DNA of 49,834 bases from Escherichia phage UP30: sequence record OX638287. One strand, 5' to 3'. The notes under the pieces are model-generated. The model saw only the letters and a program-made list of their open reading frames with translations. It had not been told where the DNA came from and made no database searches. Position 1 is the stretch's first letter. The number at the start of each line of letters is the position of its first letter. Positions 2,654-49,834 of this stretch are shown in pieces. The translations under genes and the position numbers were made by a program.

Positions 2654-3142
2654 ATGAAAATCAAATTACTTTGCACTGGCGGTTATAAAGGCTTTACCCG
2701 AGATCTGGAAGCAGACCCTATCGTGGTTGATGCGGTGAAGTGTGATGATAGCCTCGGCGGCTACCGCGTGAAGTTTGACGACCTGGTTAAAGCTGGTGTG
2801 TACGATCTGGATTATGGACTTTCGGTTAGCCCGGTAGTCGGCCCGGCAGATTTCAACGAGAAGGACGGAACGATGTTCTTTTTTGAATGGGAAGTGCAAT
2901 CAAACATCAAGCCGCGCAAGGTTCGTCTTCTCAGCAATGGCGGCTACCCTATGCGCCCAGGTTATGAGAATCGCACGTTCCCGGTTATCGTTGACTTTGA
3001 AGAAATCACCGCACACTTAGCTTATATCAACGGTGAACAGCTTAATGCTGTTGGATTCGTGGGAGGTATGAATCAAGAGGCGCTATGCTTCTTCCATTGT
3101 AAAGCCGAGCCGTTCGATATTGAGTGCGAATTGGTTTACTAA
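2654..3142 (+). CDS. hypothetical protein (162 aa)
   Basis: ORF after promoter module, GAGGA RBS. Confidence 0.6.
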   Translation: MKIKLLCTGGYKGFTRDLEADPIVVDAVKCDDSLGGYRVKFDDLVKAGVYDLDYGLSVSPVVGPADFNEKDGTMFFFEWEVQSNIKPRKVRLLSNGGYPMRPGYENRTFPVIVDFEEITAHLAYINGEQLNAVGFVGGMNQEALCFFHCKAEPFDIECELVY

Positions 3143-3183
3143 GCACGAATTGTTAAAAGTGGATTTGGCCTGACTGGTATAAT
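3141..3183 (+). promoter_or_regulatory. early promoter module
   Basis: aagcacgaattgttaaaag; TGgTATAAT 3175-3183. Confidence 0.55.
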
Positions 3184-3720: not shown

Positions 3721-3869
3721 TGGTTACCTGGGTTTTGATTATCCTGATGAGCAATGGACCGGATCACGTATATATGAACAGCCAGCATTCATGCAATGAG
3801 GCTCGGGCAGTCATTGCAGATAACAAGCCGTTCGGATACGAAGTAAAAACTATGTGCGTTAAACGATAG
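3720..3869 (+). CDS. putative small protein (49 aa, MVTWVLIILMSNGPDH...)
   Basis: TAATG overlap with upstream stop, GAGGTG RBS, stop TAG embedded in box; hydrophobic N-terminus. Confidence 0.4.
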   Translation: MVTWVLIILMSNGPDHVYMNSQHSCNEARAVIADNKPFGYEVKTMCVKR

Positions 3870-3914
3870 CACGAATTGCTAAACCTTCCGCAAGGCCATT
3901 TGATATAGTGGCCT
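3867..3914 (+). promoter_or_regulatory. early promoter module
   Basis: tagcacgaattgctaaac; aaggccatTTGATATAGTggcctt. Confidence 0.6.
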
Positions 3915-3949
3915 TATTGAAGCAGGGCAACCAATCAGAGGAATCAGCT

Positions 3950-5237: not shown

Positions 5238-5456
5238 ATGGCTACTATCATGACAGCAGAAGATGCAGCACGCGACGCAGTGGAAGGAATGCGCCCAAAT
5301 AGCTCCAGAATCGCCCACTACTACAAATCTGAGGTGTCGGCAGTGCAATTGACCCACGAAATTTTAAGGCTCCCACAGGTCGATTCAGCGCGCGTAGTGA
5401 CGTGCTTAAAAAATTATTTTTGCATTGCTATTAAAACGAATAGCACGAATTGCTAA
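5238..5456 (+). CDS. hypothetical protein (72 aa)
   Basis: ORF with AAGGGTG RBS; stop TAA embedded in box. Confidence 0.35.
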   Translation: MATIMTAEDAARDAVEGMRPNSSRIAHYYKSEVSAVQLTHEILRLPQVDSARVVTCLKNYFCIAIKTNSTNC

Positions 5457-5488
5457 AACCTATCAAGGGGAATGCGCTATGATTCCCC
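5441..5488 (+). promoter_or_regulatory. early promoter module
   Basis: tagcacgaattgctaaaac; ggggaatgcgcTATGATtcccc. Confidence 0.55.
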
Positions 5489-5513
5489 TACACCAACAAG
5501 CGAGGAAACACAC

Positions 5514-5960
5514 ATGAAACACTTAATCTGTATTGAAGCACCTAACGATGAATACACTCTTCACGGCATTGGTATGTTCAAAGGTCACTATATGACCGCA
5601 AGCATTTACGACGCGCATCGAGGTGACGGCGATCTAATGATTAAGTCAAAAGAGGTTAATCCGTACATCATGCAGAATCTTGGTAATAACGAATATATGG
5701 CCTACGGATGCAATGCGGTTTACAAGCACATCAAGATCCGCAAGCGTGTAGTGCGTGCATTCAAGAAAATTGCAATGAAGCACTGGAAGATGAGCAAGAA
5801 GGACGCCGGACGCTGGGCGCGCAATGTTGCTGACTCATACTTCTACCGTAACGGTGAGTCCTGCTACTTCCTTATCGATGAACTTATGGAAAACTGCGGA
5901 GGCGACTTCAGCCAGATTAGCTTTGACGATTGGGCTAACTATGAGATTAGTTGCTGGTAA
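5514..5960 (+). CDS. hypothetical protein (148 aa)
   Basis: Track ORF starts at 5472 inside the hairpin; ATG 5514 follows GAGGAAACA RBS. Confidence 0.5.
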   Translation: MKHLICIEAPNDEYTLHGIGMFKGHYMTASIYDAHRGDGDLMIKSKEVNPYIMQNLGNNEYMAYGCNAVYKHIKIRKRVVRAFKKIAMKHWKMSKKDAGRWARNVADSYFYRNGESCYFLIDELMENCGGDFSQISFDDWANYEISCW

Positions 5961-6009
5961 TGGCACGAATTGCTAAAACTTGCTCAAGGGTATTTGATAG
6001 AATGCCCTT
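5961..6009 (+). promoter_or_regulatory. early promoter module
   Basis: tggcacgaattgctaaaac; aagggtatTTGATAGAATgccctt. Confidence 0.55.
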
Positions 6010-6685: not shown

Positions 6686-7258
6686 ATGAAAACAGCTATC
6701 ATTTTAAACGGCGCGCCGGGCGCTGGTAAGGACACTATCGGCGCAATCCTGGCTGACATTTACGATCACGTAGCTTTGCGCAGCTTCAAAGAGCCGATGT
6801 TTGAGATTGCTCGGGCAATACTTGGTGAAACTAACTACGAGTATTTCATGTTCTTGTATGAGGACCGTCGATACAAAGAAGAGCCAGCATCTATCCTGAA
6901 CGGTAAAAGCCCACGCCAGTTTATGATCTGGATTAGCGAAGAGGTAATCAAGCCACAGTTCGGCAATCGCTTCTTCGGTATGCGAGCGGAAAGTAAGGTG
7001 AAAGAGTCGTACTCCCTTTCGGTATTTACTGACGGTGGATTCAAAGATGAGATCTTGCAAATGATTGAAGGCGATATCCAGGTAAAGCTATGTCGAATCC
7101 ATCGCAACGGTTGCAACTTCGATAATGACAGTCGCGATTATATCTACCTGGATGATATGATCGGGGTCAACGGTTATCAGGAATGTGATTTCTTCTCTGT
7201 TGAGGGTCATCCTGAAATTACCGCTCAGCACATAGCCGCCACATTCATCAATAAATAG
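6686..7258 (+). CDS. P-loop kinase, dNMP-kinase-like (190 aa)
   Basis: N-terminal GAPGAGKDT Walker A of the GKDT type seen in phage dNMP kinases. Confidence 0.5.
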   Translation: MKTAIILNGAPGAGKDTIGAILADIYDHVALRSFKEPMFEIARAILGETNYEYFMFLYEDRRYKEEPASILNGKSPRQFMIWISEEVIKPQFGNRFFGMRAESKVKESYSLSVFTDGGFKDEILQMIEGDIQVKLCRIHRNGCNFDNDSRDYIYLDDMIGVNGYQECDFFSVEGHPEITAQHIAATFINK

Positions 7259-7303
7259 CACGAATTGCTAAAGCGTCGGTGGGGTGATTTGATATAGTTA
7301 CCT
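7256..7303 (+). promoter_or_regulatory. early promoter module
   Basis: tagcacgaattgctaaagc; TGaTATAGT 7290-7298. Confidence 0.55.
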
Positions 7304-7330
7304 CATCGACAACGAAGAGAGAAAATCGAA

Positions 7331-9038: not shown

Positions 9039-9047
9039 TAAACACTA

Positions 9048-9070
9048 ACCCGCTTCGGCGGGTTTTTTTA
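9048..9070 (+). terminator. intrinsic terminator at end of early block
   Basis: cccgc-ttcg-gcggg then T7. Confidence 0.7.
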
Positions 9071-9081
9071 TGCCTGCAATA

Positions 9082-9107
9082 TGGTAAAATAGCACTAAAT
9101 GTTAAAC
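9082..9107 (+). promoter_or_regulatory. terS promoter: extended -10 TGgTAAAAT directly followed by dyad box
   Basis: TGGTAAAAT 9082-9090; tagcactaaatgttaaac 9090-9107; ATG 9123. Confidence 0.45.
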
Positions 9108-9122
9108 AAAGAGGATGTATTT

Positions 9123-14947: not shown

Positions 14948-15007
14948 TTAGCGTTTAATATGGGGACTATCCTTTTTGGATGGTCCTTTTTTTATGGAGA
15001 AATAATT

Positions 15008-15772
15008 ATGGCTTACGAAAATTTAATGTTGCGCCCGGCGTGTCCTGGAAATCTTTCCGATACTTCAACCTACAATATTGATGGTGCTTGCGTTGCGCAG
15101 GGTGATATTGAGTTCGGCTCGGCGGTACAGGTTATCGGGATCGTTGATGGTGTTAAAGTCGTTACGGCGCTTACTGATGGTGGAACTCCTTACGGTATAG
15201 CTTTCCGTTCCCAATATGAACACCTGAGCGGTAAAATCTTAGACGGCGAAGTGTGCAACGTAGTTTCTTACGGTCGAATGTGGACGCTTACTTCTCTTGA
15301 TGAGGCTCCCGGCTTATTCTCAAAGTTGCAATTTGGATCTGGTGGCGTTGTTACTGGTGGATCTGGTTCCGTAGGTTGGACCTTCGCGGGTGGATTTGTT
15401 AAGCATGAAGACGGCTACATCATTGAGGTTCAGGTGAAACAAAATGCTTTCATCGTCCCACCGCCGCCTCCAGTTGTTCTTGTTGAATCAGCTACGATCA
15501 CTACCGACAAGGAAAGTCCTCAGCCTAACAACGTTACGATTCAGTGCGTAGCTAATGTTCTTCCTGTGAACGCTGATGATAAAACTGGCAAGTGGTCAAT
15601 TGACGCCACCAACATTGCTACTGTGGATCCGGACTCAGGTTTGGTTACTCCTGTAGGTGGAGAAGTCGTCGGTAACTTCAATATCACATGGACGGCTAAC
15701 GACGCCAGCAAGACGAAGGCAACTATTGCCTATCGCGTAGAAGCGGCTCCAACTCCAGAAGGTGAGTCATAA
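15008..15772 (+). CDS. head protein, paralog B with C-terminal Ig-like (Big_2-type) domain
   Basis: N-terminal paralogy to 14471-14947; PPPPP linker then Ig-like domain; ATG 15008 after GGAGAAATAATT. Confidence 0.5.
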   Translation: MAYENLMLRPACPGNLSDTSTYNIDGACVAQGDIEFGSAVQVIGIVDGVKVVTALTDGGTPYGIAFRSQYEHLSGKILDGEVCNVVSYGRMWTLTSLDEAPGLFSKLQFGSGGVVTGGSGSVGWTFAGGFVKHEDGYIIEVQVKQNAFIVPPPPPVVLVESATITTDKESPQPNNVTIQCVANVLPVNADDKTGKWSIDATNIATVDPDSGLVTPVGGEVVGNFNITWTANDASKTKATIAYRVEAAPTPEGES

Positions 15773-15784
15773 CACAAAAATGCT

Positions 15785-15812
15785 TTGACGCTTTAACAAA
15801 AAGTGCTATTAT
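15785..15812 (+). promoter_or_regulatory. strong sigma70-type promoter of capsid gene (TTGACG-16-TGcTATTAT) with inverted box in spacer
   Basis: -35 15785-15790, -10 15807-15812; box ttaacaaaaagtgctatta 15793-15811. Confidence 0.55.
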
Positions 15813-15816
15813 TGAA

Positions 15817-15845
15817 GCCGTGAACATAATCACGGCTTTTTTATT
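15817..15845 (+). terminator. hairpin + U-run in capsid gene 5' leader
   Basis: gccgtga-acataa-tcacggc then T6. Confidence 0.45.
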
Positions 15846-15863
15846 AACTAAGGAGAAATAATT

Positions 15864-16823
15864 ATGGCTACTAAAAAATTTGATGAAGCAGACAAAAGCA
15901 ATGTCGAAATGTATCTGATCCAGGCTGGCGTAAAGCAGGATGCAGCAGCAACTATGGGTATCTGGACCGCTCAGGAACTACACCGCATCAAAAACCAGTC
16001 TTACGAAGAAGATTACCCTGTCGGCTCCGCGCTGCGAGTATTCCCGGTTACTACCGATCTTTCTCCGACTGACAAGACTTTCGAATACATGACCTTTGAT
16101 AAGGTTGGCACGGCTCAGATTATCGCGGACTACACCGACGACCTGCCGCTTGTTGATGCCCTGGGCACTTCTGAGTTCGGTAAAGTGTTCCGTTTGGGTA
16201 ACGCGTATCTGATCTCAATCGACGAAATCAAAGCGGGTCAGGCAACTGGTCGCCCACTGTCAACTCGTAAGGCAAGTGCATGTCAGTTAGCGCATGACCA
16301 ACTGGTTAACCGTCTGGTGTTCAAAGGTTCCGTGCCGCACAAGATCGTGTCCGTGTTCAATCATCCGAACATCACCAAAATTACCTCCGGTAAGTGGATG
16401 GATGGCGCAACTCAGAAACCGGAAACAGCAGAAGCTGAATTGACTCAGGCAATCGAAACCATCGAGACGATTACTCGCGGTCAGCATCGTGCAACCAACA
16501 TTCTGATCCCGCCGTCCATGCGTAAGGTATTGGCTATTCGTATGCCTGAGACTACCATGTCTTATCTGGACTACTTCAAGTCTCAGAATGCTGGTATCGA
16601 GATCGACTCTATCGCAGAGCTTGAAGATATCGACGGCGCGGGTACTAAAGGTGTGCTGGTTTACGAAAAGAATCCGATGAACATGTCCATCGAGATCCCG
16701 GAAGCATTCAACATGCTGCCAGCACAGCCGAAAGACTTGCACTTTAAAGTGCCTTGCACCTCTAAGTGTACTGGTCTTACAATTTATCGCCCGATGACTA
16801 TTGTCTTAATCACTGGCGTGTAA
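15864..16823 (+). CDS. major capsid protein (putative)
   Basis: 319 aa, strong promoter upstream and strong terminator downstream, position in head module. Confidence 0.65.
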   Translation: MATKKFDEADKSNVEMYLIQAGVKQDAAATMGIWTAQELHRIKNQSYEEDYPVGSALRVFPVTTDLSPTDKTFEYMTFDKVGTAQIIADYTDDLPLVDALGTSEFGKVFRLGNAYLISIDEIKAGQATGRPLSTRKASACQLAHDQLVNRLVFKGSVPHKIVSVFNHPNITKITSGKWMDGATQKPETAEAELTQAIETIETITRGQHRATNILIPPSMRKVLAIRMPETTMSYLDYFKSQNAGIEIDSIAELEDIDGAGTKGVLVYEKNPMNMSIEIPEAFNMLPAQPKDLHFKVPCTSKCTGLTIYRPMTIVLITGV

Positions 16824-16830
16824 TATCATA

Positions 16831-16861
16831 GGGGCTAACTTAGTTAGTCCCTTTTTTTTTA
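16831..16861 (+). terminator. strong intrinsic terminator after capsid gene
   Basis: 8-bp stem, then T9. Confidence 0.75.
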
Positions 16862-19484: not shown

Positions 19485-19496
19485 ATCATATCCACA

Positions 19497-19525
19497 GGGG
19501 GCTTGCGCCCCCTTCTTCATTTCTG
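19497..19525 (+). terminator. terminator after major tail protein gene
   Basis: ggggg-cttgc-gccccc then T-rich tract. Confidence 0.5.
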
Positions 19526-19560
19526 TAAAATCATCGTATCAACTTTATTCACTTCGTTTT

Positions 19561-19578
19561 TAACAAAAAGTGCTATTA
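19561..19578 (-). promoter_or_regulatory. dyad box, inverted relative to downstream tail chaperone gene
   Basis: taacaaaaagtgctatta; followed by CCAATCAGGAG leader. Confidence 0.45.
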
Positions 19579-30900: not shown

Positions 30901-30928
30901 TTGACTAAATGCTGTTAATGGCTATAAT
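30901..30928 (+). promoter_or_regulatory. canonical sigma70 promoter of recombination module (TTGACT-16-TATAAT)
   Basis: -35 30901-30906, -10 30923-30928, AAGGAG 30945-30950. Confidence 0.6.
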
Positions 30929-36077: not shown

Positions 36078-36132
36078 CGCGTAGAAGGATGTTACCCCGC
36101 TACGCGTCGTTTGTTTTAACTAAAAATGCTAT
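36078..36132 (-). promoter_or_regulatory. dyad box plus downstream hairpin/U-run upstream of primase
   Basis: Box 36114-36132 (minus sense tagcatttttagttaaaac); stem acgcgtag/ctacgcgt 36078-36110. Confidence 0.45.
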
Positions 36133-36568
36133 TGGTCGTTCCGATATCTTCCTTCTTCACCACTCGCATAAACTTCTTGTTCTTGCATCGCTTCTCAAGG
36201 CACTTGCCGTTACCGTCAAACTTGAGGTCGAATCGCAACCATGCCGCGCGGTATCCTTTACACCCCTGGCGACGGTAAGCGCGATGTGCAGCTTCAGCAC
36301 CTTGCCACGAAATCATATTGCGCTCTTTCCAGCCTTGCACGGTCTGATTACTAACTTTCAGAGCCTTTGCGCAGGCCGCCGGGCCACCATAATATTCGAT
36401 AAGAGCATCAAGTCGCGCTCGCAGTCCGGCGCGTGTTTCTTCTTTATGGATATAGAATCCGCAGCGTTGGCGAGGCTTTTTATCTTTACCGCGTCGGGTT
36501 CCATTGTTACCATTGATGTGACGTTTATCGATTTCACCAGTTGACTCGGCAATTCGTTGCATATTCAT
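36116..36568 (-). CDS. DNA-binding protein with Cro-like HTH and possible N-terminal HNH-like motif
   Basis: ACAKALKVSNQTVQGW helix-turn-helix; RHINGNNG resembles an HNH core; AGGAG RBS. Confidence 0.45.
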   Translation of the reverse strand: MNMQRIAESTGEIDKRHINGNNGTRRGKDKKPRQRCGFYIHKEETRAGLRARLDALIEYYGGPAACAKALKVSNQTVQGWKERNMISWQGAEAAHRAYRRQGCKGYRAAWLRFDLKFDGNGKCLEKRCKNKKFMRVVKKEDIGTTNSIFS

Positions 36569-36581
36569 CTTGATTCTCCTG

Positions 36582-36648
36582 TAGCACTTTTTGCTAAAAA
36601 CGTTTACTGTATGCCGTGTATTATAGCGTAAACGTTACAACGATTCAA
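36582..36648. promoter_or_regulatory. bidirectional promoter region sharing one palindromic -10 (TATTATAG)
   Basis: Box 36582-36601; plus -10 tattat 36619-36624; minus TATAAT 36620-36625 with -35 TTGAAT 36643-36648. Confidence 0.5.
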
Positions 36649-38680: not shown

Positions 38681-39093
38681 TTACAGACAAAGGTGATTAT
38701 TTAGAGTTTTACGAACGAGATCCCAGCGACACACGAAAGGAGGACGCGCACCAGGTAGATTGCGTGTCCTGGCTGAAATACAATTTCCCACATCTTCTAT
38801 TTTGGCACACTGTAAATGAAGGTGAAAAAACAATCACCTCGGCGCTCAGGGATGAGCAGGCTGGGTTACTTAAAGGAGTGTCAGACTTCGTTATCCTGAT
38901 TGGTGTAAACTCACGCTACCCGTTCGCAGCTATCGAACTCAAGCGGGTTAATAAGTCCGGCAAGGGAAAGGCGTCACCAGTCAGCGATAAGCAAAAGGAA
39001 TTTCTCCGCAATGTTCGTCAACGAGGTGGATTTGCTGCGGTTGCATATGGATTGGAGCAATTCAAGATCGCAATTTACGAAATGATGAAATAG
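38677..39093 (+). CDS. VRR-NUC-type nuclease
   Basis: PD-(D/E)xK-like core (VSDFVIL...AAIELK); ATGA overlap with helicase. Confidence 0.6.
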   Translation: MITDKGDYLEFYERDPSDTRKEDAHQVDCVSWLKYNFPHLLFWHTVNEGEKTITSALRDEQAGLLKGVSDFVILIGVNSRYPFAAIELKRVNKSGKGKASPVSDKQKEFLRNVRQRGGFAAVAYGLEQFKIAIYEMMK

Positions 39094-39135
39094 CACTTTT
39101 TGTTAAAACTGCCGGAATGGAATCTGGCATTATTA
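39091..39135 (+). promoter_or_regulatory. promoter module upstream of dam
   Basis: tagcactttttgttaaaac; TGgCATTAT. Confidence 0.5.
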
Positions 39136-39160
39136 CCTCACCGAAACGAGAGGACTAAAA

Positions 39161-39874
39161 ATGAAAGACTTTAATGACATTGAAACTATCGACTTTGCAG
39201 AAACTGGTTGCTCATTCACTCGCGAAGCAATAGCATCAGGCGGTTATTATCAGGCATTGAAAACGCCAACCTGTAAAGAAATCTCCGGTCGTCGATATAA
39301 GGGAACAAATACGCCTGACGCAGTTCGTGATTTATGGTCTACCCCACGAGAGGTTATTGCATACCTTGAGGGTCGTTACGGAAAATACGATCTCGATGCT
39401 GCGGCAAGCGAAGAAAATAAAGTTTGCGAGAAGTTTTATTCTCAGGAAACAAACTGCTTAAAACGTTGGTGGGGTAAGAGCAAGCACGTTTGGTTAAATC
39501 CTCCTTACAGCCGCCCTGATATATTCGTCAAAAAGGCGATTGAGCAAATGGAGCACAACAATCAGATCGATATGTTGTTACCTGCCGATAATTCGACGGC
39601 GTGGTTTACTGAGGCTCGACAGCACGCGGCTGAAATTATCTGGATTGAAGCGGATTTGACTGAAGATATCGACGGTAACGAGTATGCTCGATCCGGTCGC
39701 CTGGCCTTCATATCCGGTGAAACTGGAAAGGCGGTTGACGGTAATAACAAAGGTTCGGTAATTTTCATTATGCGCGAACTGAAAGAAGGTGAGGTTCAAC
39801 AGACCCACTACATTCCAATCACAAGCATTTGCCCTTCGGTGAAGAACAAACGAGCAAAAGTGAGGAAAGTATGA
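39161..39874 (+). CDS. dam: DNA N6-adenine methyltransferase (phage Dam-like)
   Basis: YDLDAAAS and NPPYS motifs. Confidence 0.7.
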   Translation: MKDFNDIETIDFAETGCSFTREAIASGGYYQALKTPTCKEISGRRYKGTNTPDAVRDLWSTPREVIAYLEGRYGKYDLDAAASEENKVCEKFYSQETNCLKRWWGKSKHVWLNPPYSRPDIFVKKAIEQMEHNNQIDMLLPADNSTAWFTEARQHAAEIIWIEADLTEDIDGNEYARSGRLAFISGETGKAVDGNNKGSVIFIMRELKEGEVQQTHYIPITSICPSVKNKRAKVRKV

Positions 39875-40122
39875 TGAACGAAAAAATGATTCCGGTTAAG
39901 TTAACTGAGCAAGGCTTATGGCTTCTTTATCGCGCTACGTGCTGCGAAATCATGGAACAAAACGGATTGACGAAAGATGTTATTGGTTGCGACTTATGGG
40001 AGTTTACCAGTTCTCTTGATATGTCATTCGACGAGATAAAGAATGAACACATTGATTATTGGCCTTCGCTCATACAAAGAGACGTAGAAGAATTTAAATC
40101 TGATACGATCGCACAGCACTAA
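39871..40122 (+). CDS. hypothetical protein (83 aa)
   Basis: In-frame ATG of ORF 39829-40122, ATGA overlap with dam stop. Confidence 0.45.
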   Translation: MMNEKMIPVKLTEQGLWLLYRATCCEIMEQNGLTKDVIGCDLWEFTSSLDMSFDEIKNEHIDYWPSLIQRDVEEFKSDTIAQH

Positions 40123-40157
40123 TTGCTAAAACTACCCGGCGAAAGTCGGGTATAGTT
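40115..40157 (+). promoter_or_regulatory. promoter module
   Basis: agcactaattgctaaaac; cccggcgaaagtcggg then TATAGT. Confidence 0.5.
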
Positions 40158-40958: not shown

Positions 40959-42110
40959 ATGTCACAAGCTAAAATCACTACCGAGCAACTAATCGAAGAG
41001 CGCATGAACGGCCTAACGCTTCGCGAGATCGCGGAAAAGTACGGTATGCATATCCGCACGGTTGAAGCGCGTCACGCCAAACTTGCAAAAGAAGGCCACT
41101 TTCACGGTAACGAGCATGTTGCTAAAAACGTTCCAGAAGGCTTCATGGTTAAAGGTACATCAACGATGATTCGAGGTGATGGGACCGAAGTGGTCCGCTG
41201 GGTTAAGACAGATCAGGATCGTGAGAAGATTGCCGCAATGATGGAAGCGGCTCGTATTGCATTCTGCGAAGACCTGCCGCGAGCAAAGCCAACCGAGCTA
41301 CTCACCTCGCAAGGACTTACAACCGCGATCGGTAAGCTGGCGCTCTATCCGGTATTCGACCTTCACATCGGCGCGCTTGCTCACAAGCATGAGTGCGGAG
41401 AGAACTACTCTACCGACGTAGCTGAAAAAGTGCTGGGCGACTTCTTCAATTATGCGATCGATATCGCGCCAAATGCAGAGAAAGCCGTTCTGTTAATCGG
41501 CGGTGACTTCCTTCACTCTGACGGCCTTGACGCTGTAACCCCGGCAAGCGGTCACGTTCTGGATCAGGATTCACGATACGCTAAGTTGGTGCATGTAGCG
41601 ATTCGATCGGTGCGACGAGCTATCGACAAAATGCTGACGAAACACAAAGAAGTCGAAGTCCAGGTCATTGAAGGAAACCACGACCAATCAGGAATGATTT
41701 GGCTGCGCGCTGCAATGGCTGCATACTATGAAGACGAGCCGCGAGTATTCGTTGACGTGAGTCCTATGATTCTGCATAAGACTCGCTGGGGCAATACCTT
41801 GCTGGGATACACTCACGGTCACACGATGAAAAAGGCCGACATTCGACTTGCAGCAATGGCGGCAGACTTCCGCGCAGACTTCGGTGAAAGCAAATACGTG
41901 TACACGCACAGCGGACACTGGCATCATCAGACAATCACTGAACACTCGTTAGGAATTGATGAGGTTCACGGGCAGTTAGGAGCGAAGGATGCATACGCCG
42001 CGCGAGGCGGGTGGCGCTCATATCGCCAAGCGGCGGTAATCGTTTACGACAAGCAATTTGGTGAGATAGGTCGATTCATCTATCGTCCAGAAATGACAGG
42101 ATCGCACTAA
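40959..42110 (+). CDS. calcineurin-like metallophosphoesterase with N-terminal HTH
   Basis: DLH, GDFLHSDG, EGNHD, GHT, GHWHH motifs; LTLREIAEKYGMHIRTVEARH helix-turn-helix. Confidence 0.65.
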   Translation: MSQAKITTEQLIEERMNGLTLREIAEKYGMHIRTVEARHAKLAKEGHFHGNEHVAKNVPEGFMVKGTSTMIRGDGTEVVRWVKTDQDREKIAAMMEAARIAFCEDLPRAKPTELLTSQGLTTAIGKLALYPVFDLHIGALAHKHECGENYSTDVAEKVLGDFFNYAIDIAPNAEKAVLLIGGDFLHSDGLDAVTPASGHVLDQDSRYAKLVHVAIRSVRRAIDKMLTKHKEVEVQVIEGNHDQSGMIWLRAAMAAYYEDEPRVFVDVSPMILHKTRWGNTLLGYTHGHTMKKADIRLAAMAADFRADFGESKYVYTHSGHWHHQTITEHSLGIDEVHGQLGAKDAYAARGGWRSYRQAAVIVYDKQFGEIGRFIYRPEMTGSH

Positions 42111-42150
42111 TTGCTAAAAACGCCCGAAGGGATTCGGGCATAGTAACCAC
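42104..42150 (+). promoter_or_regulatory. promoter module
   Basis: gcactaattgctaaaaac; gcccgaagggattcgggc then CATAGT. Confidence 0.5.
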
Positions 42151-45696: not shown

Positions 45697-45750
45697 CGGT
45701 GTAAATGATACACCGCCAATGGTACACGCGTTTTGCAAAAAGTGCTATTA
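45697..45750 (-). promoter_or_regulatory. promoter module (minus strand)
   Basis: Minus-sense tagcactttttgcaaaac; hairpin with TATCAT; AAGGAG. Confidence 0.5.
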
Positions 45751-49227: not shown

Positions 49228-49413
49228 TCCAATAATTGCTTATTATTCCATCAATGCTGGAATAGGTGGAATAATTTTGATTCCGATTGATTGCAAATGA
49301 TGAAACATGATTATTGCATGGTGTGCAACAGTTGGTTGATTTATTGCTGAGATTACAATGATTGTGAGAGGGAGGATCTAGTGTTACCCGGTTCGCCTGG
49401 TAGTCATCTCCAT
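49228..49413 (-). ncRNA. candidate non-coding transcript between two minus-oriented dyad boxes
   Basis: No ORF >21 aa on either strand; bracketed by boxes; ATTCC/GGAAT repeat cluster. Confidence 0.2.
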
Positions 49414-49434
49414 TTTTAGCAAAAAGTGCTACCG
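49414..49434 (-). promoter_or_regulatory. dyad box without adjacent ORF
   Basis: Minus-sense tagcactttttgctaaaa; next 190 nt leftward have no ORF >21 aa. Confidence 0.4.
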
Positions 49435-49521
49435 ATTACACTTTAACTTGTCACTGCTGTAATATTTGTCTAGAATCACACTTGTGACAAAATTACGCAC
49501 TGTGACACCTCACAATATACA

Positions 49522-49552
49522 TATAGATATATGTATCTATATAATATATATA
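49522..49552. repeat. AT-rich palindrome TATAGATA-N4-TATCTATA and 18-mer tctatataatatatatag shared with 30596-30613
   Basis: Exact 18-mer at 49535-49552 and 30596-30613. Confidence 0.55.
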
Positions 49553-49834
49553 GTATTTTTTTTATTTATATATATAGATAATTATATTGTAATAATTGTG
49601 TATAGTTGTCTTACATTGTCTAGCGTACTGTTGGCATATTTCTATCTGCATGTTTATATATACAGTACTTTTTTGAGAGCTATATATTTCTATATGGACT
49701 CTAGACAGCTAGACAAATGTTACACGGCTTAAAATCGGCTTGCAGGCATTGACAACTCTACGTCGCGCTGTCACAATGGCAATTGTTGACACGTTATGAC
49801 GCCATTTACACGCAAATAGACAAAGAGGATATAT

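Follow-up and report, generated by a model that had tools for sequence, protein, structure and literature searches.

In this study we analyzed the region in front of the major capsid protein gene in a stretch of 49,834 nucleotides (nt) from Escherichia phage UP30 (sequence record OX638287), called the window below. This region is probably best explained, as a whole, as the boundary of two transcription units at which three elements overlap: a promoter for the capsid gene, a reversed copy of a repeat, and a terminator-like hairpin. The promoter, consisting of an A-tract, TTGACG, a 16-nt spacer and TGcTATTAT, would drive capsid transcription from about 15819/15820. The GC-rich hairpin with its U-run would terminate RNA coming from upstream, protect its 3' end, or both, and capsid transcripts, which would lack half of the stem, would continue through the capsid gene. 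The unit would be closed by a second terminator, at 16830, resulting in an abundant message of about 1 kb. A protein bound to the reversed box would compete with RNA polymerase and hold the capsid promoter down while it is active. The analysis assigns the hairpin to the upstream transcript and speaks clearly against a role as an attenuator of capsid expression. What merits further work is the identity of the repeat, which matches the marbox of the host regulators MarA, SoxS and Rob.

An initial annotation of this DNA had read a promoter, TTGACG-16-TGcTATTAT, at 15785–15812, and the elements are present there on the plus strand. The -35 hexamer TTGACG occupies 15785–15790 and is supported by a promoter scan, by relatives and by the annotation of phages T1 and SA32RD. 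The extended -10 TGcTATTAT, also found by the scan, occupies 15804–15812 (TG at 15804–15805, hexamer TATTAT at 15807–15812). Together they match 10 of 12 consensus positions in addition to the extended -10. This is not the best host-type promoter of the window, as had been claimed: TTGACT-16-TATAAT at 30901–30928 scores 11/12, and several other sites score 10/12. Consensus matches in the region are not above chance (20 promoter-like sites, against 16.0 ± 3.9 in shuffled sequences). The evidence for a real promoter comes from conservation in relatives and not from a single consensus score. A scan of viral contigs with the capsid protein gave 63 loci with 57–99% protein identity and 46 distinct upstream sequences, and the A-tract, TTG, the box in the spacer, TGn (TGc) and TATnnT recur upstream of every one of these capsid genes. 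In 18 diverse relatives, four A positions of the A-tract and the TAT..T of the -10 are invariant. The flanking coding sequence and the sequence of the hairpin diverge among relatives while the promoter elements stay, which argues that the promoter is under selection. The A-tract, AAAAA at 15776–15780 (about -43 to -39), is a putative proximal subsite of an UP element, judged by its position alone. The promoter reading of the site is thus borne out by conservation in every relative examined and by the T1 and SA32RD annotations, and this conservation points to a strong sigma-70 promoter that would drive the capsid gene. In one relative (L053, 1404–1489), GTGTGGATATT replaces GTGCTATTAT, a replacement that breaks up the box's GCAC as well as the -10; its capsid match is lower, and the change may be a natural variant or a sequencing problem.

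Sigma-70 promoters initiate about 7 nt past the -10. At the capsid promoter this spacing predicts a start at C15819 or G15820, 7–8 nt past the -10, and this position bears on the hairpin that follows. The hairpin with its T-rich tail spans 15814–15845 on the plus strand, with arms at 15814–15823 and 15830–15839, a loop at 15824–15829 and T6 at 15837–15842. The hairpin and the T6 noted at the outset are present, and the stem, which had been given as 7 bp, is a 10-bp stem of 9 perfect pairs and one G-U. It folds at -15.0 kcal/mol (z = -6.9), and none of 200 shuffled sequences was equally stable. In an RNAalifold analysis of 20 diverse relatives, 9 consensus pairs were found, 6 of them with compensatory double changes. 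In this alignment 92% of the cells are paired, and 24 cells carry double changes, compared with 8.9 ± 2.5 after shuffling; none of 500 shuffles reached this count, and slid controls were far lower. The GC-rich stem and U6 lie 42 nt past the stop codon of the preceding gene, and RNA arriving from upstream folds the complete hairpin at its 3' end. The start had been placed at the foot of the hairpin, within a leader that would contain a terminator-like structure. The predicted start instead falls 6–7 nt within the 10-nt 5' arm, and the structure does not lie wholly inside the leader. Since this start removes most of the 5' arm, RNA from the capsid promoter could not form the terminator. Capsid transcription thus probably starts within the terminator hairpin of the preceding gene, as far as the sequence and the usual sigma-70 spacing indicate.

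The same geometry is found across the relatives. The base of the stem lies 0–2 nt past the -10 hexamer in all hairpin-bearing lineages (2 nt in the window). The full stems range from -9.5 to -14.5 kcal/mol across lineages, and a start 7 nt past the -10 leaves a residual stem of -0.3 to -2.7 kcal/mol in the other lineages. In the window the residual stem is -5.3 kcal/mol with a start 7 nt past the -10 and -3.3 kcal/mol with a start at G15820. The leader predicted to begin at 15820 is without significant structure (z = -0.95), its folding showed no alternative antiterminator structure, and an Rfam search of 15600–16000 found nothing at threshold. In the most distant group of relatives (L054–L063) a terminator, GGGGCTTCGGCCCC-T5, stands upstream of the promoter, and no hairpin follows the -10. 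This layout is the conventional order of the same two functions, terminator and then promoter.

These data bear on attenuation in the leader, which the initial annotation had proposed. Capsid RNA would contain the hairpin and would stop after about 25 nt unless a factor of the infected cell overrides it. The hairpin with T6 does resemble a good intrinsic terminator placed between the -10 and the ribosome-binding site (RBS), and the late region is full of terminator-like hairpins that need read-through. A start unusually near the -10, at 15817, would keep a 7-bp stem of -12.2 kcal/mol. However, the stem begins 0–2 nt past the -10 everywhere, so that normal initiation removes most of the 5' arm, and residual stability is near zero in most relatives and reaches about -5 kcal/mol at most. 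The 4–5-bp stem that survives stops 2–3 nt short of the U-run. The unstructured leader from 15820 offers no antiterminator, and the distant relatives have the terminator upstream of the promoter. Leader attenuation is thus unsupported, and we consider it very improbable. The hairpin most likely serves the upstream transcript, in termination, in 3'-end protection or in both.

Which of these functions is the main one depends partly on the U-tract. It is strong in T1- and TLS-like lineages. Because it is weak in several relatives, the conserved role of the hairpin may be protection of an RNA end or partial termination. The hairpin might then be mainly an element of RNA stability or processing, with the capsid expressed largely from long read-through transcripts. 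It would shield the decoration-gene message at its 3' end or, once read-through RNA has been cleaved, the capsid message at its 5' end. The conservation of the stem where the U-tract is weak or absent is in keeping with this, and so are the hairpins without U-runs that bracket the -10 of many other promoters of the phage. Read-through is in any case required, as downstream late genes lack promoters. On the other side, clear U-runs are present in the window, T1 and TLS, several programs call terminators there, and a near-consensus promoter kept in all relatives argues for its use. A stability role overlaps with the boundary of two transcription units and is not exclusive of it; as the main account of the site it is rather unlikely. 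The terminator U-run at 15837–15846 is also 90% complementary to 15869–15878, the A-rich codons 3–5 of the capsid gene, so that the RBS and ATG would be enclosed if the two paired. As the leader did not fold into any significant structure, the complementarity may be due to chance.

Several points weigh against the boundary of two transcription units as set out above. The U-tract is short or absent in several relatives (for example L049, L038 and L021). In the window's own lineage a 4–5-bp stem persists at the predicted 5' end of the transcript. Late genes 3' of similar hairpins have no promoter of their own, and because of this such hairpins must be leaky or overridden. A literature search found no start-site mapping or transcriptomics for T1-like phages, and no 5'-end, 3'-end, binding or expression data on any of them.

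The gene order around the site agrees with that of close relatives. By sequence identity the window belongs to a T1-like phage (Tunavirus). Among Tunavirus genomes, Sfin-3 is 94% identical over the 900 bases around the capsid locus, SA32RD (vB_EcoS_SA32RD) 93% and T1 88%. The preceding gene, on the plus strand at 15005–15772, encodes a head decoration protein with an Ig-like domain. Its open reading frame (ORF) spans 14960–15772 with the stop codon TAA at 15770–15772, and its start is approximate, placed by analogy with T1, in which the homologue CPTT1_030 carries the annotation of an IgG-domain decoration protein. A gap of 91 nt separates this gene from the capsid gene. The RBS AAGGAG (15850–15855) and the capsid ATG (15864–15866) are read directly from the sequence, and the T1 annotation concurs. 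The capsid gene (15864–16823, plus strand) encodes 319 amino acids with 97–99% identity to Tunavirus capsids and 97% to that of T1 (L015). Directly 3' of it lies a further terminator-like hairpin with T8 (16830–16860, plus strand), equivalent to the T1 terminator at 16107–16137, which would close the capsid transcription unit. Much of this is already on record. T1 (AY216660.1) has an annotated promoter at 15062–15089, a rho-independent terminator at 15095–15121 and an RBS at the homologous site, and the same pair of promoter and terminator is annotated in SA32RD. In TLS, the homologous site has the repeat DR7 on the negative strand, followed directly by terminator T35. The junction of promoter and terminator is thus ordinary and previously annotated. 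The TLS paper describes the T1 late region as modules with RpoD-type promoters and with terminators on their flanks (PMC11447400).

The box in the spacer is the third element of the site. It had been described as an inverted dyad overlapping the spacer and the -10. The overlap is present, at 15790–15809 on the minus strand, and the dyad is not: the box is an asymmetric 20/21-nt repeat in reverse orientation. A dyad search was not significant, and the pattern CACTTT-N5-AAAGTG, tried as a description of the box, had 4 matches against 2.6 expected, which is not above chance. The spacer sequence GCTTTAACAAAAAGTGC is the reverse complement of the TLS repeat aaATAGCACnnnTTGnTAAAA; when up to 3 mismatches are allowed it recurs 10 times, where 0.15 are expected. 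On the minus strand the box reads ATAGCACTTTTTGTTAAAGC, a marbox-like 20-mer that matches aaATAGCACnnnTTGnTAAAA except at one end position and that corresponds to DR7 of TLS. It spans about -29 to -10 and so takes in the extended -10's TG and the first half (TAT) of the -10 hexamer, both of which are supplied by its GCAC end. The box is reversed in essentially all relatives; 43 loci have exactly one consensus box, on the minus strand. In distant relatives a box of the GAA subtype is found at the same place of the capsid promoter. Because the orientation is kept in relatives and a different subtype holds the same place, the element appears to be selected as a box and not merely as a spacer.

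This position suggests how the box could act. Because the box covers the TG that sigma region 3 would contact, its occupancy should hinder RNA polymerase, and competition between a monomer on the box and sigma regions 2 and 3 is expected from the overlap. Box-dependent repression of the capsid promoter, which had been suggested as one outcome, is plausible and is the direction we favour, with moderate weight. In E. coli, a marbox that overlaps the promoter spacer represses pbpG (PMC12052159). As a counterexample, the sigma-28 promoter flgBP2 is activated through a marbox located at -30 to -16, so that it is uncertain which sign an effect at the capsid promoter would have. A leftward antisense promoter served by the reversed capsid box was also considered. 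Such a promoter is unlikely, since TATGAC, the hexamer at a distance of 18 nt (TATACA in T1), does not end in T.

Only two reversed copies of the box are present in the window, both in the late region. The second lies at 19557–19576 on the minus strand and is followed by TATTAA on the plus strand, an RBS and the tape-measure chaperone gene (19598), with a terminator-like hairpin upstream at 19496–19513. T1 has the same arrangement. At this box the plus-strand -10 reads TATTAA (TATCAA in T1) and does not have the final T. A minus-strand hexamer with A2 and T6, TACGAT (TAAGAT in T1), lies 18 nt away, and an antisense promoter is conceivable here.

The 21-nt direct repeat aaATAGCACnnnTTGnTAAAA was described in the TLS paper and reported there also in T1, Rtp and Rogue1, with its function left as an open question (PMC11447400). 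Its blocks GCAC, TG and AAA are invariant, asymmetric and one helical turn apart. The published consensus of the marbox is gcannwwntgnnaaa as a 15-mer and AYNGCACNNWNNRYYAAAYN as a 20-mer. The 15-mer has 21 perfect matches in the window, where 0.97 are expected and 100 shuffles gave 4 at most, and all 21 are copies of the phage repeat. Most copies of the repeat match AYNGCACNNWNNRYYAAAYN with 0–1 mismatch. The capsid box matches the 15-mer with no mismatch and AYNGCACNNWNNRYYAAAYN, with its 19 specified bases, with one. A position matrix derived solely from the 21 phage boxes was then applied to regulatory regions of E. coli K-12. In the marC–marR region the top site was ATGCCACGTTTTGCTAAATC, at 17.6 bits with the next best at -2.3, a score reached by 0.3% of shuffles. 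Upstream of micF it was ACAGCACTGAATGTCAAAAC at -51 to -32, at 14.8 bits (1.3% of shuffles). These two are the exact mar and micF sequences of the structural work on MarA and Rob. A weaker match was found at fumC. The T1/TLS repeat is thus a match in sequence to the marbox, and MarA, SoxS and Rob are its candidate binders.

The forward copies of the repeat have the geometry of activator sites. Sixteen of 19 have a good -10 exactly 18 nt past the 20-mer and no -35, and T1 is alike. Their hexamers are TATAGT, TATAAT, TATGAT, TAGAAT, TATTAT, CATAAT and similar. The 18-nt spacing centres the forward boxes near -40.5 of the predicted starts, in the geometry of class II sites and in the orientation of micF. 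The capsid copy itself, which occupies the spacer, does not show this geometry. On the plus strand the 20-mers of the forward-box promoters lie at 786–805, 1525–1544, 2579–2598, 3140–3159, 3866–3885, 5440–5459, 5960–5979 and 7255–7274, and further at 36581–36600, 39090–39109, 40113–40132 and 42101–42120. On the minus strand they lie at 45748–45729, 46765–46746, 47881–47862 and 48298–48279. The -10 of these promoters stands at 18 nt (17 nt in one case), TGn is present in about 9 of 15, and after a short leader the gene start follows 30–40 nt further on. The forward boxes were also considered as -35 hexamers, and this was rejected, as TTGTTA would leave a spacer of 22 nt.

A protein-independent role was also weighed, in which the box would be a UP-like or curved A/T-rich DNA element and, at the capsid promoter, a favourable spacer that provides TGn. 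The idea of an UP element was raised by the authors of the TLS paper (PMC11447400). The centre of the box is A/T-rich, and its GTGCTAT end does provide the TG and TAT of the extended -10. However, the forward copies are out of register with the UP-element consensus, so we rejected them as UP elements, and the A/T-rich centre is the variable part of the box, with the TTT, GAA and TAA subtypes that occur in the window as in the TLS repeats. The GAA subtype at the same place of the capsid promoter in distant relatives speaks against it as well. Invariant GCAC, TG and AAA blocks one helical turn apart are the pattern of a site for a protein that carries a pair of helix-turn-helix (HTH) units. A purely DNA-based role is improbable.

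The binding protein was then sought in the phage. A Pfam search of 30 ORFs found no AraC-type HTH, and its sole regulator-like match was a weak Cro-type HTH in a 150-amino-acid protein (36116–36568, minus strand). With MarA and SoxS as queries, tblastn found no match in the window below E = 0.4, three candidate regulators had no counterpart in a sequence search of the PDB, and the HHpred-based annotation of T1 lists no AraC-type protein. Because no AraC-type protein was found in the phage, host MarA, SoxS and Rob are the leading candidates. The box could instead be bound by a phage protein, either the Cro/C2-like regulator at 36116–36568 or an uncharacterised early protein, with a convergent likeness to the marbox. 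The phage boxes are far more alike than host marboxes (the matrix holds 23.8 bits) and have extra conserved positions, ATA before GCAC. One copy of the box lies in the leader of the regulator gene, adjoining its RBS, and many early ORFs have no known function. These features favour a phage binder, whereas the searches above do not, and a Cro/C2-type dimer would be expected on a dyad and not on an asymmetric box. We regard a phage binder as unlikely on balance, although one of another fold than the AraC type is conceivable.

With the host regulators as binders, the T1-like (Drexlerviridae) repeats would be consensus marboxes, and the whole transcription programme of the phage would be wired to host MarA/SoxS/Rob. 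This joint reading is tentative, and we think it somewhat more apt to fail than to hold. About 16 early and middle promoters, with no -35 and a forward box 18 nt from the -10, would be regulator-dependent class II promoters. The reversed late copies, at the capsid and tape-measure chaperone genes, overlap the core promoter, so the same factor would repress there. The switch from early to late expression would come once the factor is lost or titrated. As short-lived Lon substrates, MarA and SoxS would vanish after host shut-off, and replicating phage DNA would add thousands of high-affinity sites.

Other points count against the marbox reading. Unstressed cells contain little MarA or SoxS, and Rob stays largely inactive unless inducers are present. 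The phage-box matrix found no significant match upstream of zwf, sodA and acrAB (acrA), which are weaker sites. The marbox consensus is degenerate, with 17,730 matches in E. coli at two mismatches. The marbox is nevertheless a concrete and testable candidate for the question that the TLS authors left open, and a literature search found no paper that ties marboxes or MarA to T1-like phages. Confirmation would make it a clear example of a host family of stress-response activators put to use by a virulent phage for its temporal programme. It would also explain how a phage is transcribed that lacks its own RNA polymerase and sigma factor and has hardly any -35 elements. If true, phage growth would be coupled to signals of the gut, among them bile salts, fatty acids and phenolics, by which Rob and MarA are induced.

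Several further features of the forward promoters were observed. At most other promoters of the window, GC-rich inverted repeats bracket or abut the -10 and would be excluded from the promoters' own transcripts (-12 to -21 kcal/mol, z of -3 to -6.7), and a hairpin placed at the -10 appears to be a general design in this phage. Repeats of this kind that bracket the -10 are found at 1551–1574 (GGGGTA..TATAGT..TACCCC), 3892–3915, 5466–5489, 7275–7310 and 47855–47832 (minus strand), and their arm sequences differ between promoters. At 40133–40152 and 42121–42138 the hairpin lies wholly between the box and the -10. The bracketing repeats could be 3'-end hairpins of upstream transcripts, or they could act on the DNA. 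About 7 nt past the -10 of forward promoters stands a conserved CATCGAAACGAG (variants CATCGACAACGA and CATCAACAACGA), for example at 1575–1590, 2629–2643 and 39140–39152, and a sequence of this type forms the predicted 5' end of many early and middle transcripts. GATC motifs (cGGATCGGG, tcGATCGG) occur just past several forward boxes, at 806–814, 1545–1553 and 48278–48270, and the phage encodes a Dam methylase at 39161–39874.

Other copies of the box lie in different settings. At 9089–9108 a forward box stands directly 5' of the RBS of the small terminase gene and just past a strong terminator (9047–9064). It has no -10 18 nt downstream, and on the opposite strand its GTGCTAT end makes TGcTATTTT. 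The segment 36569–36661 is a divergent control region between the Cro/C2-like regulator gene on the minus strand and a helicase gene on the plus strand. Here a plus-strand -10, TATTAT (36619–36624), and a minus-strand -10, TATAAT (36625–36620), overlap almost fully. The box at 36581–36600 is a forward site for the helicase promoter and lies at the same time in the leader of the regulator gene, adjoining its RBS. At the right end of the window, 49400–49800 has dense promoter-like sites on both strands and is probably an early control region that reads across the permuted genome end into the genes of the left arm.

The capsid site can be compared with known systems at several levels. T1, SA32RD and TLS share with the window the order of stop codon, -35, box, -10, hairpin, U-run, RBS and capsid ATG. 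The annotations of T1 and SA32RD differ from our description in that they do not mention the start within the hairpin, the spacer box as a reversed repeat, or a binder, and TLS has no promoter listed at the homologous site. The capsid box is a member of the family of the TLS 21-nt repeat, and the TTT, GAA and TAA subtypes occur in both phages. The TLS repeats run along the direction of transcription, about 76 nt before start codons (PMC11447400), unlike the capsid copy and the copy at 19557, which are reversed and overlap the core promoter. The authors of that study proposed an analogy with the stoperators of mycobacteriophage L5, which are likewise many asymmetric sites across a phage genome with an orientation bias (PMC11447400). 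L5 stoperators differ in that they are situated inside transcribed regions, where elongation is blocked by way of a phage repressor, whereas most copies of the phage box occupy a promoter position at a constant 18 nt from a -10 and have no known phage repressor. The forward phage boxes resemble the class II marboxes of E. coli such as that of micF: they have the same orientation, replace the -35 and are centred at about -40.5 (about -41.5 in micF). The differences are that the phage has at least 20 near-identical, high-scoring copies and the host sites are degenerate, that the phage is virulent, that the capsid copy lies outside the class II position, and that the phage side of the comparison consists of sequence only. 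Work by Schneiders and colleagues from 2004 and 2006 is said to describe repression of the rob, purA and hdeA promoters by a marbox in the core promoter. The arrangement of the capsid promoter is also found at pbpG, where an asymmetric marbox lies over the spacer of a sigma-70 promoter (PMC12052159).

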